Below, in pieces: positions 26,341 through 62,882 of a stretch of DNA of 64,000 nt. Position 1 is the first letter of the stretch, and each line of letters begins with the position of its first letter. A model generated the notes under the pieces. The model saw only the letters and a list, made by a program, of their open reading frames with translations, was not told where the DNA came from and made no database searches. The DNA comes from Eledone cirrhosa (taxonomy: Eukaryota). The stretch is from assembly GCA_964016885.1 (NCBI GenBank), contig CAXHJY010001226.1, positions 1 through 64,000 on the forward strand, given 5' to 3'. Made by a program: the position numbers and the translations under genes.

Positions 26341-26971
26341 ATAAATTTGAATATTAAAATCCAAAGAGGGCTCGATAAGGATAAATATATATCAAATATA
26401 TAAGAACCGTAGAGCAAATATTTATTAAAATAACAGATTAAAGTTTAAGCAAAGAATCGCTGCTTTCACCCTTAATGGGATCTTCTGAAACTAACAAAGT
26501 CAATCTGTAAACGCAGAACTGGATATTTCAAAAAACTCTGTAGCGGAGATTCATTTGGTCTCCTAGTTAGAATTTTAGTCTACGACTTCTGCTTTACCAT
26601 TTACGTGGTTGTATCTTTGCGTGGTTGTATCTCCAATGCTCCACATGACGTATTATCTTCGTTTTTTCCTTCATTGCCAGAAAACGTCTCTATGCACCAC
26701 CTAAGAGAACATTAGTCTATACGTGGTTCTGTCTTTGCGCGTAATTGTTTTTCACCGCTCCTATTAATGACGTATTATTCGTTCTTTCCCGTTCTTTGCC
26801 AGCGAACGTTACCACGAACCAAAGTATCGTCTTCCTGTCTTCCTCCGGTTGCAACGTTTTTTTAAATATCCTGTTCTGCATTTACAGATTGACTTTGTTA
26901 GTTTCAGAAGATCCCGTTAAGAGTGAAAGCAGCGATTCTTTGCTTAAACTTTAATCTGTTATTTTAATAAA
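26341..26971 (-). mobile_element. Non-coding mini element with ~115-bp inverted repeats and a one-sided tail (PLE-like architecture)
   Basis: 26421-26536 is the rc of 26856-26971; extra ~80-nt tail on the left; internal diverged direct repeats; microsatellite on both sides. Confidence 0.7.
26900..26950 (+). ncRNA. Hammerhead-like fold with non-canonical core CAGAAGA (mirror copy 26442-26492, minus strand)
   Basis: AGTTT-CAGAAGA-TCCC..GGGT/GAGT-GAAA-GCA..TGC-TT-AAACT; stems I, II and III can all form. Confidence 0.45.
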
Positions 26972-27641
26972 CATATATATATATATGTATATATATATAT
27001 GTATATATATATATATATATATGTATATATATATATATGTATATATATATATGTATATATATATATGTATATATATATATATATATATATATATATATAT
27101 ATATATATATATATATATGTATATATATATGTATATCTATATATATATATATATATATGTATATATATATATATGTATATATATATGTATATCTATATAT
27201 ATATATATGTATATATATATGTATATCTATATATATATATATATGTATATCTATATATATATCTATATATATATATATATGTGTATATATATATATGTAT
27301 ATCTATATATATATATATATGTGTATATATATATATGTATATCTATATATATATATATATATATATATATATATATATATATCTATATATATATATCTAT
27401 ATATATATATCTATATATATCTATATATATATATCTATATATATATATCTATATATCTATCTATATATATATCTATATATATATCTATCTATCTATATAT
27501 CTATCTATATATCTATATATCTATATATATATCTATATATATATATCTATATATATATCTATATATATATCTATATATATATCTATATATATATCTATAT
27601 ATATATCTATATATATATCTATATCTATATATATATATATA
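26972..27641. repeat. (TA)n microsatellite with TG/TC interruptions
   Basis: Directly visible. Confidence 0.95.
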
Positions 27642-28572
27642 TGACAAATTCACTCACTTTGATCTCAGCAAACAGGGGAGATAAGCCGACAAGACTTGTT
27701 GCGCTTTGGTTGAAGCTTATCAAGGCCAACTACCCCACCTGTTTGCTGAGATCATCGATGTTATACTCTTATAGAAATCTAGTAAATAATCAGGAGCTGA
27801 TTATGCAGAGCGGTTGTTGGTCAGGCAGAAATTAAAGATTAGAATTGGAGCTCTGAAATAGCAATATATATATGGATGTATATATAATGTATTTTGCAAT
27901 ACACTTTATGCTTAATTAAAAGCATTTTGAAGACCGTAAGCTATTGTTTTAAAGTAGTGACAAATTCACTCACTTTGATCTCAGCAAACAGGGGAGATAA
28001 GCCGACAAGACTTGTTTCGCTTTGGTTGAAGCTTATCAAGGCCAACTACCCCCACCTGTTTGCTGAGATCATTGATGTTATATTCTTATAGAAATCTAGT
28101 AAATAATCAGGAGCTGATTATGCAGAGTGGTTGTTGGTCAGGCAAAAATTAAAGATTAGAATTGGAGCTCTGAAATAGCAATATATATATGGATGTATAT
28201 ATAATGTATTTTGCTATACACTTTATGCTTAATTAAAAGCATTTTGAAGACCGTAAGCTATTGTTTTAAAGTAGTGACAAATTCACTCACTTTGATCTCA
28301 GCAAACAGGAGAGATAAGCCGACAAGACTTGTTTCGCTTTGGTTGAAGCTTATCAAGGCCAACTACCCCACCTGTTTGCTGTTGATAAGCTTCAACCAAA
28401 GCGAAACAAGTCTTGTCGGCTTATCTCCCGTTTGCTGAGATCAGAGTGAGTGAATTTGTCACTACTTTAAAACAATAGCTTACGGTCTTCAAAATGCTTT
28501 TAATTAAGCATAAAGTGTATTGCAAAATACATTATATATACATCCATATATATATTGCTATTTCAGAGCTCC
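27642..28572 (-). mobile_element. Candidate non-LTR retrozyme: 2.3 tandem 316/317-bp units plus an inverted partial unit
   Basis: Units start at 27642, 27958 and 28275 (the third ends at 28380); 28382-28572 is an inverted copy; each unit contains an HHR. Confidence 0.8.
27976..28071 (-). ncRNA. Type I hammerhead ribozyme, U3-A8 core variant (unit 2; unit 3 copy 28293-28380, mutated unit 1 copy 27660-27754)
   Basis: rc GGCC-TTGATAA-GCTT caacca AAGC-GAAAC AAGTCTT GTC^GGCT, enclosed by the 17-bp helix TGATCTCAGCAAACAGG/CCTGTTTGCTGAGATCA. Confidence 0.8.
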
Positions 28573-29490
28573 ATATATATAGATAGATATATATATATAG
28601 ATAGATATATATATATAGATAGATATATATATAGATAGATATATATAGATATATATATAGATAGATATATATATATATAGATATATATATAGATAGATAT
28701 ATATATATATATATATAGATAGATATATATATATATAGATATATATATATATAGATATATATATATATATATATATAGATATATATATATATATATAGAT
28801 ATATATATATATATATATATAGATATAGATATATAGATATAGATATATATATATATATATATATATATATATAGATATATATATATATATATATATATAT
28901 ATATATATATATATAGATATATATATATATATATATAGATATATAGATATATAGATAGATATATATATATATATATATATATATAGATATATATATATAT
29001 ATATATAGATATATATATATATATATATATATATAGATAGATAGATATATATATATATATATATAGATAGATAGATATATATATATATAGATAGATATAG
29101 ATATATAGATATATATAGATAGATATATATATATATATATATATATATATATATATATATATATATATATAGATATATATACATATATATATATATATAT
29201 ATATATATATATATATATCTATATATCTATATATATATATATCTATATATATATAGATATATATATATATATCTATATATATATAGATATCTATATATAT
29301 ATAGATATCTATATATATATATATAGATATATAGATATCTATATATATATATATCTATATATATATATATAGATATATATATATATATCTATATATATAT
29401 AGATATCTATATATATATAGATATCTATATATATATATATAGATATATAGATATCTATATATATATATATCTATATATATATATATAGAT
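28573..29490. repeat. (TA)nGA microsatellite
   Basis: Directly visible. Confidence 0.95.
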
Positions 29491-60828: not shown

Positions 60829-62240
60829 TATATTTACTTATGATTTATAATTATTTATGAAACTCGCCGATAAATCTTTCGATTTCTTTTTTTTAAACAT
60901 TCTTCATGAATAATTAAACTACCCTAAAAGCTGATGCTCCAAATATATCGAATAAATTTTACACCAGATAAACTTCTATAATAAATATAAGACCATCTGT
61001 AGATCAAATGGGTATCCTAAACTTTTAGAATGATTTCTGCTAGACAGGATTTGGTAAATAATTTTGGTTTTGTTTGCTTTTGATTCTGATGCTTATAATG
61101 AACTTGGCAATATATTGTCAATTAATTTTGAAGGGTTGATCTCTGTGATTGATTTGCGGGGCATACTGTGTTTTATTTTTAATATTTTTTAATTTTTTGA
61201 TATTTTTATTGATATATTGATATCTGTTGTCTATTTATACTTGAACGATAATCATGTAGAGTAAAGACAAGAATAGTATTGTTAAAATTAATGTAGATTC
61301 TATATATATTTGTGTGTATGTACACATATATGTATACTAGAATTTTTATAGCACAATGAGAATGTTTTCATGTGAAATAGGAATTTGCAGAGTTGATCAC
61401 GTAAATTCACATGGAAGTCTATAGTATCGAATCTGGGATAACCTTCTATTTTCTTTTTCTTTTTCTCTTTTTTTTTTTTTCTTTTTTCATGAAAGTGCAT
61501 ATATACTTATGTATTTCAATTTTTTTTAAAGTTTTTAATCTCAGTTTTTTATCTCAGTTTTTTTATCTCAGTTTTTTTAATCTCAGCTCTGATATAAACC
61601 TAGGAATTTTAAACTAGACATATGATCATTATTTTTCACACATTATTGATACGTGCCTCATTCATGAATACTGATATTTACATTATAATACCTAATTCAT
61701 ATGAATTGATATTTTTACATTGATGAAACATAATGTTTTAAATCTGCCTCGTTTATCTCTGGATATTTTTCTTTTCTCTCTATGTAACGGCTGTTTTCTC
61801 TCCTAACCACATATATCTCTCTCTACCTTAATACTAGAACTAAATAAATAAATAAATAAATAAATATATCATTGATACGCCATTCAACTGGTGCCCAACT
61901 ACCTATTTTCTTTCTCTCTATCTCTATCTATATCTATTTCTCTCTCTATTTTTTCTCTCTCTCTTTTCTCTCTCTCTCTCTATCTATCTCCCTCTGTGTT
62001 TTTTCTCTCTCTATCTATCTATCTCTGTTTCTTTACATGAATTTCTTCTCTCTATCTATCTCTCTATATCTATCTCTCTCTATTTAGTTGCATGCATTTC
62101 TTCTTTTTCTTCGTTTTTTCTTTCTTTCTTTCTTTTTATAACTGTCCCTAACATTTTTCACTACCAAATCAACTTTTTAAATGGAAGTTGAAGTCGTAAG
62201 GTATGTCAAATCTATCTATTTATAAGACTGTTTATATTGT

Positions 62241-62304
62241 ATTTTGTCTGAAGAAGGCATACCATATTTTTAATATGATATCCCTGAAATATATATAATG
62301 AAAT
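62241..62304 (+). ncRNA. Minimal type I hammerhead ribozyme near the PLE2 3' end (mirror copy 57099-57162, minus strand)
   Basis: ATTTTGT-CTGAAGA-AGG..CATATT..AATATG..CCT-GAAAT ATAT ATA^ATGAAAT; palindromic stem III loop. Confidence 0.72.
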
Positions 62305-62882
62305 AAATATGGTTTTATAAATATAGTTTCCATTTATTTAATATCGTAAATATACTCCAAATACTTGTTGAGTGCTTTTATATCAGTTATAAATATTTAC
62401 TCGTTGTAACCCAACAATTTAAATAAAACTTTGCATATATATATATATATATATGTACACACTGACCTGTAACCGTTTTTTAGAGTGGACAACATAGTCC
62501 AATTAAAAATAGGTAGTTTACCAAATAACTGTTTACAAGAAAGTGGCCATAAAATTAATGAATATCTTAAATTTCTAAGATAAAAATATTTCATAAATTA
62601 TCCAGTCAAGCTGGATGGGAATGGTTATGTTTACCAAATAAATGGTAAACCTAACTTAATTTTATTGCTTATTATATCTACAGTGTTAGTTCTATATATT
62701 TACATTAATATATTTAGACTGTCCCTTGAGGTTAAGTGGTGTAACCCCAAGCTACAGTTGCTTGGTTGATAAGTCACTTCACCAGTCAGTGTCTGTGTAC
62801 AGTGGGTAGTTGTTGTTCGCTGGGTTTCAGTTTACCAGTGCTAGTGTTAAATGACTGTAGCTGTTGAGTGATTCCACTAACC

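Follow-up and report, generated by a model that had tools for sequence, protein, structure and literature searches.

Inverted-copy insertions in (TA)n of an Eledone cirrhosa contig, and a probable origin by Penelope-type enzymes priming from both ends of the target

The window analysed here, a 64,000-nucleotide stretch of Eledone cirrhosa contig CAXHJY010001226.1, contains six two-armed insertions (E1 to E6), all located in (TA)n and with arms that face away from each other. As the original prediction stated, each includes an inverted copy: self-BLAST of the window with TA masked recovered inverted pairs for E1 (26423-26536/26969-26856, 96% identity), E3 (35085-35235/38278-38128, 99%), E5 (43579-43688/44103-43994, 97%) and E6 (57063-59316/62340-60083, 99.7%), a 317-bp tandem at 27642-28381 followed by an inverted piece at 28382-28573 for E2 (98%), and a hairpin at 42189-42357 for E4. 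The families, with about 700 to 3,300 genomic candidates each, comprise three coding Penelope-like elements (PLEs; E1, E3 and E6), an ORF-less unit (E5), a hammerhead repeat (E2) and a tRNA-bearing repeat (E4). They were initially described as unrelated, which is correct at the DNA level but not for the endonucleases of E1, E3 and E6, which are about 37-41% identical.

Only E3 and E6 had been recognised as coding, the remaining four being taken as non-coding. This holds for E3 and E6 as PLEs. E1 consists of a tailed (distal-site) arm at 26331-26536 on the minus strand, with a hammerhead-like fold (core CAGAAGA at 26487), and a tail-less (proximal-site) arm at 26537-26974 on the plus strand. 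Other E1 copies have reverse transcriptase (RT) and endonuclease sequence upstream of the same 3' UTR, so that E1, judged by its sequence, is the 3' end of a truncated autonomous PLE and not a mini-element. E3 is a 5'-truncated PLE (34988-38127, minus strand) with a GIY-YIG-type endonuclease frame (38127-37462), a long 3' UTR, a hammerhead at 35166 and a tail; its tail-less opposite arm (38128-38285, plus strand) has a canonical minimal hammerhead at 38197. In E6, the tail-less arm (57055-59316, minus strand) carries the endonuclease frame, UTR and a hammerhead at 57155, and the tailed arm (59317-62434, plus strand) an RT fragment (59317-59735), the endonuclease frame to 60828, the UTR, a hammerhead at 62248 and a tail from about 62350 to 62434, beyond the end at 62348 first assigned to the element. 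As read from the sequence, a later insertion (59736-60013, minus strand), made of an unrelated short repeat and an inverted 80-bp piece of E6, interrupts this arm and is bracketed by two copies of an 18-bp stretch (59718-59735 and 60014-60031).

A single ORF combining RT with a C-terminal GIY-YIG endonuclease was found for E1, E3 and E6: autonomous frames lie in loci L231 and L229 for E1 and L208 for E3, and the E6 family has a 701-aa frame in locus L188 and many stop-free frames of 747-750 aa. These ORFs carry recognisable RT motifs. Pfam gave a sub-threshold GIY-YIG match for the E3 protein only and none for the other four proteins, a PDB search with the PLE proteins returned no match, and the Atlas neighbours of the E6 protein carry HTH_animal/GIY-YIG domains. 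All three proteins have a C-x-C-x5-C-x5-C linker before the endonuclease, which is not letter-for-letter the CX2-5CxxC linker given for the Neptune clade in the available text of PMC8557442. Partial tandems of the pLTR-forming kind occur in E1, E3, E5 and E6, where loci L034, L220, L260 and L193 run through the tail into the next unit. With its many intact frames of about 750 aa, the E6 family is a predicted candidate for an enzyme donor.

E5 has a tail-less arm at 43571-43688 (minus strand; hammerhead-like fold at 43680) and a tailed arm at 43689-44250 (plus strand; fold at 44002), the latter being the 3' end of an ORF-less, PLE-type unit of 2.55 kb. None of 30 upstream loci provides an RT/endonuclease ORF of its own, and the longest frame in the unit is 157 aa. 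An ORF joined to E5 was seen once, in locus L242, a single chimera that we rejected as proof of an autonomous E5 since locus L253 has that ORF running on into another UTR. On this sequence evidence the window copy is a stub of the ORF-less unit, and its earlier description as a solo pLTR or mini-element falls.

E2 was called a retrozyme, and this identification stands: on the minus strand (27642-28381) it has 2.3 head-to-tail monomers of 316/317 bp, within the 170-400 nt of non-LTR retrozymes, each with a type I hammerhead (U3-A8 core), and no ORF. Intact hammerheads are at 28356 and 28039, the opposite arm is at 28382-28573 (plus strand), and arrays in the family reach about 26 units. In one of the E2 hammerhead copies the GAAA box is disrupted. 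The 317-bp tandem monomers with a type I hammerhead resemble animal non-LTR retrozymes, for which PLEs have been proposed as partners from co-occurrence and pLTR homology (PMC7229834, bioRxiv 10.64898/2026.07.22.740005; in part); in Xenopus, a TE match was reported for 24 of 57 families (Li et al. 2026, in part). E2 differs from the published retrozymes, as far as the available texts describe them, in showing a PLE footprint; no pLTR homology was found for E2 within the 1.5 Mb of loci fetched.

E4 had been listed as a non-coding mini. It belongs instead to a tandem unit of 259 bp that includes a tRNA-like portion, truncated away in the window copy; the tailed arm of this copy lies at 42146-42264 (minus strand) and its tail-less arm at 42263-42360 (plus strand). 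The tRNA-like part was detected by ARAGORN in four of six loci and by the Rfam tRNA model at 44.3 bits, and has A and B boxes; a T5 run follows it, which a predicted Pol III transcript would need to read through. Neither the hammerhead descriptor nor Rfam found a hammerhead in E4, nor was a sense-strand hammerhead visible by eye in its diverged relatives; as none was found in the monomer, we rejected E4 as a retrozyme. A plain tRNA-derived SINE was rejected too, because the tRNA part lies inside a tandem unit that is permuted, and the ends are of PLE type: E4 shows no 5' tRNA head, no LINE-like or simple-repeat 3' tail and no monomeric insertion. Parallels are offered by the schistosome SM-alpha/Sj-alpha repeats (PMC6765202, PMC8490949; in part) and the Helenus TRIMs (PMC10886601, in part), likewise tandem units that have a Pol III-type promoter inside and are carried by an autonomous retroelement. 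E4 lacks the hammerhead of SM-alpha and the LTR structure of the tRNA-bearing Helenus, and differs from all of these in its PLE-type two-armed footprint.

Hammerheads were sought with a relaxed type I descriptor and shuffled controls. Five of the six elements match, with the four different cores originally proposed (CAGAAGA in E1, UUGAUAA in E2, CUGAUGA in E3 and E5, CUGAAGA in E6); shuffles gave 0.1 match per run, and nothing matched elsewhere in the window. Rfam at its gathering score gave no match, and hence no hammerhead family, over 35000-64000. The cores are conserved across 29-78 copies in E1, E3, E5 and E6, where the descriptor places the motif in the pLTR, and relatives of E6 show a compensatory change in the hammerhead. 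These five elements thus carry motifs of a predicted self-cleaving type. With a short palindromic helix III of dimer type, they resemble PLE minimal hammerheads (PMC4209133, in part); the U3-A8 core, seen here in E2, is described there for Schistosoma PLEs. In E1, position 4 is an A and helix III is longer than in that description, and both E1 and E5 have a U.U where G10.1-C11.1 is usual (same source). The folds of E1 and E5 are atypical and may be inactive; our literature search found no account of U4A hammerhead variants.

The layout common to the six insertions is a textbook one: an inverted 5' copy, a one-sided tail and a microsatellite target are already described for PLEs (PMC8557442, PMC3846280; in part), and the shared layout is this published signature. 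The (TA)n flank by itself was rejected as diagnostic of PLE insertion in this genome, and so fails as a family signature, for 20 of 32 RTE LINE 3' ends also adjoin TA. More informative is the position of the ends. In the top-scoring (young) copies sampled, each family has two 3' end sites, A/U-rich and delimiting tails of 26-140 nt, and paired arms tend to use one of each. Counting only pairs with both ends at a standard site, the rule holds in 19/19 E6, 9/9 E3, 14/17 E5 and 23/23 E4 pairs found with a tail query, these four queries forcing a tail on one arm, and in 9/10 E1 pairs. An E4 query containing neither end gave 17/17 (p 8e-6). Of the 29 inverted E2 copies, 20 have one end at 91-94 and the other at 119-127 (20/22 with both ends standard, p 5e-5), the exceptions being two tail/tail pairs and seven with a non-standard end; the window copy itself has atypical ends, at phases 315 and 111. 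Further exceptions are tail/tail pairs in E1 (L035) and E5 (L250), three tail-less/tail-less E1 pairs below the coverage cut, and 7 of 24 E4 copies with a non-standard end.

Copies differ in their inner breakpoints and in the lengths of their arms, and the wording 'inverted 5' copy of the 3' module' understates this: the longer arm may be either of the two, and so may the tailed arm (in E4, the tailed arm is longer in eight copies and the tail-less arm in nine). Of 14 long E6 loci with an inversion, 9 have arms that each contain sequence missing from the other. Junction microhomology of at least 3 nt occurs in 13/19 E4 and 7/19 E2 junctions against a null of about 6%, values taken from the overlap of BLAST alignments once junctions that carried inserts or overlapped at length had been removed. 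An RCTC motif lies 3-12 nt past 10 of 10 end sites of E1, E3, E4, E5 and E6 (background 5-24% per site) and also marks two further PLE families; the distal site of E2 lacks it. In each of the six families, the two arms of a locus resemble each other more than they resemble the arms of other loci. Gene conversion could also make the arms of a locus alike.

We consider it probable, at roughly 70%, that PLE-type enzymes made the six insertions by priming from the two DNA ends left by a cut in a (TA)n target, a reading drawn from the sequences. The involvement of PLE machinery is the firmer part, and we regard it as very likely; two-ended priming of reverse transcription is itself a probable, though less secure, component. 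A PLE endonuclease would cut both strands of the (TA)n target. Priming from one DNA end would then start at the distal site and leave the tail, and the other DNA end would use the proximal site. A few A/U bases that match the TA primer would assist, and the short RCTC motif or a hairpin 3' of each start site would probably position it. Synthesis of each cDNA would end at no fixed point, the two annealing over 1-6 nt; where a single arm was completed, an ordinary 5'-truncated copy would result. The inverted copy and one-sided tail would thus record the two-ended priming step, and the shared two-site footprint supports the earlier proposal of a single PLE-type mechanism for all six. Having no protein-coding capacity, E2, E4 and E5 would depend in trans on the enzyme of PLEs like the E6 family. 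Whether PLE enzymes generally serve many protein-less passengers, retrozymes included and also ribozyme-free tRNA repeats that would be to PLEs what SINEs are to LINEs, via an asymmetric complex that primes at both target ends from two start sites defined by a common short RNA signal, seems to us an even bet. One PLE study reports, in its available text, no cross-mobilisation between PLE types (PMC3846280). The E2 inversion, presented at first as direct evidence that the retrozyme uses PLE machinery, is not direct, but is strong structural evidence that it likely does so.

Could the same footprint arise otherwise? One model, put forward for rotifer Penelopes and by Craig et al. (PMC3846280; PMC8557442 section 6; in part), keeps PLE machinery but has the inversion come from fold-back or self-priming that uses an antisense template or the first cDNA, and the tail from the endonuclease as it resolves the intermediate. 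The likeness of arms within a locus and the near-symmetric, palindromic junctions of about 12 of 23 E4 tail-query copies would suit this model. Yet the palindrome that holds those symmetric junctions is also a stopping point of single-arm copies, two different positions meet in most of the E2, E6 and long E4 junctions, a fold-back copy could not give the non-nested E6 pairs, and both strands are extended in vitro (PMC11167929, in part); we therefore hold it unlikely, if the most serious of the rivals. That a conventional LINE (RTE, or L1-type twin priming) mobilised E2 and E4, which would then be PLE-like in look only, is considerably less plausible. RTE LINEs are abundant and also adjoin (TA)n, E4 has SINE-like A and B boxes, and neither E2 nor E4 has PLE homology in the 1.5 Mb fetched. 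Against this, RTE copies in the fetched loci show 0/25 inversions (another short repeat shows inversion at 2 loci among 73), and E2 and E4 follow the PLE two-site rule and end without a LINE-like 3' tail. Twin priming gives non-overlapping arms, whereas the arms overlap here.

Two independent insertions, head-to-head in one TA tract or in each other's end repeat, might be invoked given that TA tracts here collect many nested insertions, that PLEs tend to insert beside earlier copies (PMC6765202, in part) and that a few tail/tail pairs exist. Such events would leave random end pairs with TA between the arms; the arms observed abut with microhomology, obey the one-of-each rule and share rare variants, which largely refutes this idea. 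Most improbable of all are MITE-like DNA transposons or fold-back artefacts of long-read assembly, although inverted arms in AT-rich repeats might suggest either. A MITE would have symmetric TIRs and a fixed TSD; here breakpoints and arm lengths vary, outer ends differ between the arms and many copies have one arm only (TSDs are unreadable in (TA)n). As far as can be tested, an artefact is countered by arms that differ by 1-3%, flanks that are not mirrored, the clean RTE control, and joints at which the strand switches, seen in another organism's raw short reads and contigs. For E2, the strand-switch evidence in reads is weak (one contig, and one joint at a stretch edge).

The reading of PLE-type priming from both ends is in keeping with published PLE work. 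Like EN+ PLEs (Penelope/Poseidon, Neptune, Nematis, Naiad), the families here have RT with a C-terminal GIY-YIG-type ORF (E1, E3, E6), partial tandems, inverted 5'-truncated copies, tails often on one end, microsatellite targets and non-autonomous derivatives such as MRC1 (PMC8557442, PMC3846280; in part). They differ in tails of about 80-140 nt versus 30-40, and the available texts do not state the one-of-each rule, non-nested arms or RCTC signal for EN+ PLEs. In vitro, the Poseidon PLE PAc also has two internal RT start sites delimiting a tail; it nicks and extends both strands of its AT-rich targets and is predicted to form a dimer (PMC11167929, in part). Its start sites lie inside the ORF without target homology, whereas those here are A/U-rich and just before the ORF start, and its tail is 30-40 nt against 26-140 nt here; in its available part, that paper draws no connection from the two sites to inverted copies or passengers. 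The main texts of PMC7229834 and bioRxiv 10.64898/2026.07.22.740005, as available, do not apply 'inverted' to insertions, and we found no published description of a PLE-type footprint on non-coding passengers, although supplements may show inverted retrozyme copies.

The one-of-each rule ties the two in-vitro RT start sites to a genomic architecture, and its footprint could assign non-coding repeats to PLEs without sequence homology. The origin of PLE inversions and one-sided tails, and the enzyme that moves retrozymes, are stated as open in the available parts of the literature cited. If E4 is truly a ribozyme-free PLE passenger, it extends the SINE idea to a third retrotransposon class. The system lends itself to a direct test: the E6 family is young and keeps intact ORFs, the passenger RNAs number three and are short, and there is a candidate for the cis signal.

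E4 copies also show a cluster of truncations at phases 229-237. Neither m1A58 nor RNase Z was retained as the cause, as the positions mismatch; a stall in a long stem is more likely.

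The six inverted pairs of the original prediction were all recovered in place by self-BLAST with TA masked; the genome that carries the window measures 3.0 Gb, and the window abounds in (TA)n and LINEs. The architecture is real and is the type known from Penelope-like elements (PLEs), for which an inverted 5' copy, a tail often at one end only, a (TA)n bias and non-autonomous derivatives are described (PMC8557442, PMC3846280). New here are its quantification and two passenger types, a retrozyme and a tRNA-bearing repeat, absent from the cited papers. A first look at the genome gave 722 candidates for family E2, 1673 for E1, 3283 for E5, 1364 for E4, 1724 for E3 and 1275 for E6; each family search scored its best 40, so the sampled copies are young.

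Three families, E6 (57055-62434), E3 (34988-38285) and E1 (26331-26974), are coding PLEs. The E6 family has many stop-free frames of 747-750 amino acids, and E3 has a near-complete frame at one locus (L208). E1 had been taken for a non-coding family, a view that did not hold: in at least 8 of 20 long loci it runs unbroken into endonuclease and reverse transcriptase (RT) frames, and it is therefore a truncated autonomous element. A short repeat is inserted in the E6 RT frame at 59736-60013; it includes an inverted 80-bp piece copied from adjacent E6 sequence, is flanked on each side by a copy of an 18-bp stretch and looks like a locally templated junction.

E5 (43571-44250), previously placed among solo-pLTR or mini derivatives, is instead an ORF-less unit of 2.55 kb with a longest frame of 157 amino acids; among the matches listed, 30 loci were sampled from its 5' part, and all of them lack RT and endonuclease. 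At locus L242 (4094-8300), the full ORF of a PLE family related to E6 is fused to the final 1.7 kb of this unit. Since the ORF is followed by a different UTR at locus L253, the join is a single chimera, produced by template switch or deletion, and no more than a hint as to the partner of E5. E2 (27642-28573) is, as predicted, of the retrozyme type, with a tandem monomer of 316/317 bp that contains a hammerhead motif and is strongly self-paired (z -6.9); its arrays range from a single unit to about 26. Flanking sequence happened to reveal a 310-bp sister family (L202, L182, L238, L203, L279), which is about 74% alike around both end sites and differs in its hammerhead, with a CUGAAGA core; it forms two-armed arrays (4 of 4 long loci) whose end positions are identical to the two of E2. 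E4 (42146-42360) is a 259-bp tandem unit holding a tRNA-like part (ARAGORN in 4 of 6 loci; Rfam, 44.3 bits), with A and B boxes, then a T5 run, and a long helix prolonging the acceptor stem. Diverged relatives (73-87%; L229, L228, L165, L186, L226) end and invert in the same way as E4, which makes this an old, diverse family; E4-type units also abound in reads of another organism.

Five families with four hammerhead cores (CUGAUGA, CUGAAGA, UUGAUAA, CAGAAGA) had been proposed, and a relaxed type I descriptor, with 0.1 hit in shuffled sequence, matches exactly these (E1, E2, E3, E5, E6) and nothing in the rest of the window, E4 included. The Rfam model, suggested as a check, gave no hammerhead at gathering score in 35000-64000. 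The hammerheads of E2 and E3 have the normal G10.1-C11.1 pair, and the U3-A8 core of E2 is shared with Schistosoma PLEs (PMC4209133). In E6 and its relatives the core varies at position 7 alone, and a stem II pair is altered at both partners, with 20 of 57 copies changed on one side and 19 on the other, probably through a single event. The hammerhead-like fold of E1 has an A at position 4, and in both E1 and E5 stem II has a U.U at its base, which makes their activity doubtful; at least 90% of copies conserve the core, out of 71 for E1 and 78 for E5.

Each family has a pair of 3' end sites, a proximal one (P, on the tail-less arm) and a distal one (D), which gives the tail, spaced by about 80-140 nt in E1, E3, E5 and E6, 40-50 in E4 and 26-33 in E2. 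The predicted inverted layout with a one-sided tail could be counted, and most pairs combine one end of each kind (P/D). In the best 40 of 722 E2 candidates, 29 loci are two-armed: 20 P/D, 2 D/D, 0 P/P and 7 with a non-standard end, including the window copy (P/D in 20/22, p 5e-5). The sister retrozyme is P/D in both loci with both ends in view. For E4, a query with neither end yielded, among the matches listed, 24 two-armed loci and 4 single blocks, with 17 P/D, 0 D/D, 0 P/P and 7 non-standard pairs (p 8e-6), the D arm being the longer in 8 and the P arm in 9; a tail query, sharing two loci with that set, yielded 23 two-armed loci of 30 listed, P/D in 23/23. Elsewhere, pairs were counted if family sequence between the arms reached at least 85%, and short loci may miss distant arms. 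Among the matches listed, P/D was found in 19/19 pairs of E6 (29 loci), 9/9 of E3 (28 loci) and 14 of E5 (30 loci), which adds 3 nominal D/D, 2 of these reading through into the next unit, the queries of these three families forcing D on one arm; E1 (29 loci among those listed) has 9 P/D, 1 D/D and 2 unclear. The cut dropped L187 (D/D) and L188 (D/P) from E6, L224, L229 and L236 (D/P) and L233, L052 and L239 (P/P) from E1, and L090 (unclear) from E5.

How do the two arms arise? Inner breakpoints vary among copies and mostly also between the arms. Of the 14 long E6 loci with an inversion among the matches listed, 9 have the tail on the D arm and a P arm that extends further 5'; neither arm can thus be a copy of the other. 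The main rival, inversion by self-priming or fold-back (PMC3846280), would explain the symmetric junctions of E4 but not such non-nested arms. We propose that both target ends would prime, with D used by one and P by the other. Synthesis of the two cDNAs, from a template that may be a single tandem RNA, a pair of RNAs or a circle, would end at variable points, in E4 often at the start of the tRNA stem, and the cDNAs would then anneal via microhomology. Passengers, the protein-less families, would borrow a PLE enzyme, and E4 templates would have to read through the T5 run. According to PMC11167929, the Poseidon element PAc in vitro nicks both target strands and extends both, has two internal start sites that delimit the tail and is a predicted dimer. 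Overlaps of at least 3 nt occur at 13/19 E4 and 7/19 E2 junctions, versus about 6% expected; these are BLAST overlaps, which can overshoot, and junctions with inserts or overlaps above 6 nt (5/24 and 10/29) were excluded. Arms are closer within than between loci (E2 22/28, E4 32/39, E6 12/15, E3 7/7, E1 6/7, E5 7/8), as expected from one source template or later conversion.

As controls, RTE LINEs in the same DNA have TA against 20/32 3' ends and are inverted in 0/25 informative copies; another short repeat forms head-to-head pairs at 2 loci among 73 (L199 3892-4036, L052 2190-2327). Raw short reads of another organism support the E4 joints; the evidence for E2 is weak. The E4 head-to-tail joint has 334 reads (77 starts) there, and strand-switch joints have 12 reads (3 starts) at a palindromic site and 20 reads (2 starts) elsewhere; further ones lie in contigs of one sample from the other organism. 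Dependence of retrozymes on PLEs was proposed from co-occurrence (PMC7229834) and pLTR homology (bioRxiv 10.64898/2026.07.22.740005); inverted insertions and tails are absent from the main texts of both. Full-text searches, outside subscription papers, Repbase and supplements, turned up no report of a PLE footprint in retrozymes, of a tRNA-bearing PLE passenger or of two-ended priming for PLEs.

End sites in all families are A/U-rich and merge into the TA flank. RCTC lies 3-12 nt 3' of both sites in E1, E3, E4, E5 and E6 (10/10; background 5-24% per site, with the motif chosen after looking) and forms a hairpin with GAGY at most PLE sites. The hairpin lies just before the ORF in two PLE families outside the motif definition, and other families are without it; E2 has RCTC 14 nt after P and none near D. 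RCTC is a candidate signal.

The window also holds five RTE-type LINE copies, 92-98% alike (11938-15879, 16814-19557, 29502-33515, 38517-39381, 39550-42084), one with an intact 1164-amino-acid frame (29850-33344); their 3' ends also lie against (TA)n, and none is inverted. By their motifs, we take 19864-22610 (minus strand) to be a LINE with an endonuclease and RT frame, and 48907-54356 (plus strand) a degraded two-ORF LINE with a zinc-knuckle ORF1 and a poly(A) end. A 392-amino-acid frame at 1444-2622 (minus strand) has two Cys-rich repeats as well as runs of Gln/Thr; it has no match in the fetched loci and may belong to a host gene or be the ORF1 of an element. Degenerate (TA)n arrays, kilobases long and with higher-order repeat patterns (2921-10845, 22623-25216), adjoin retroelement ends, and short repeat fragments in TA arrays (3859-3948, 10850-11449, 16479-16602, 25219-25960) recur in other fetched loci.
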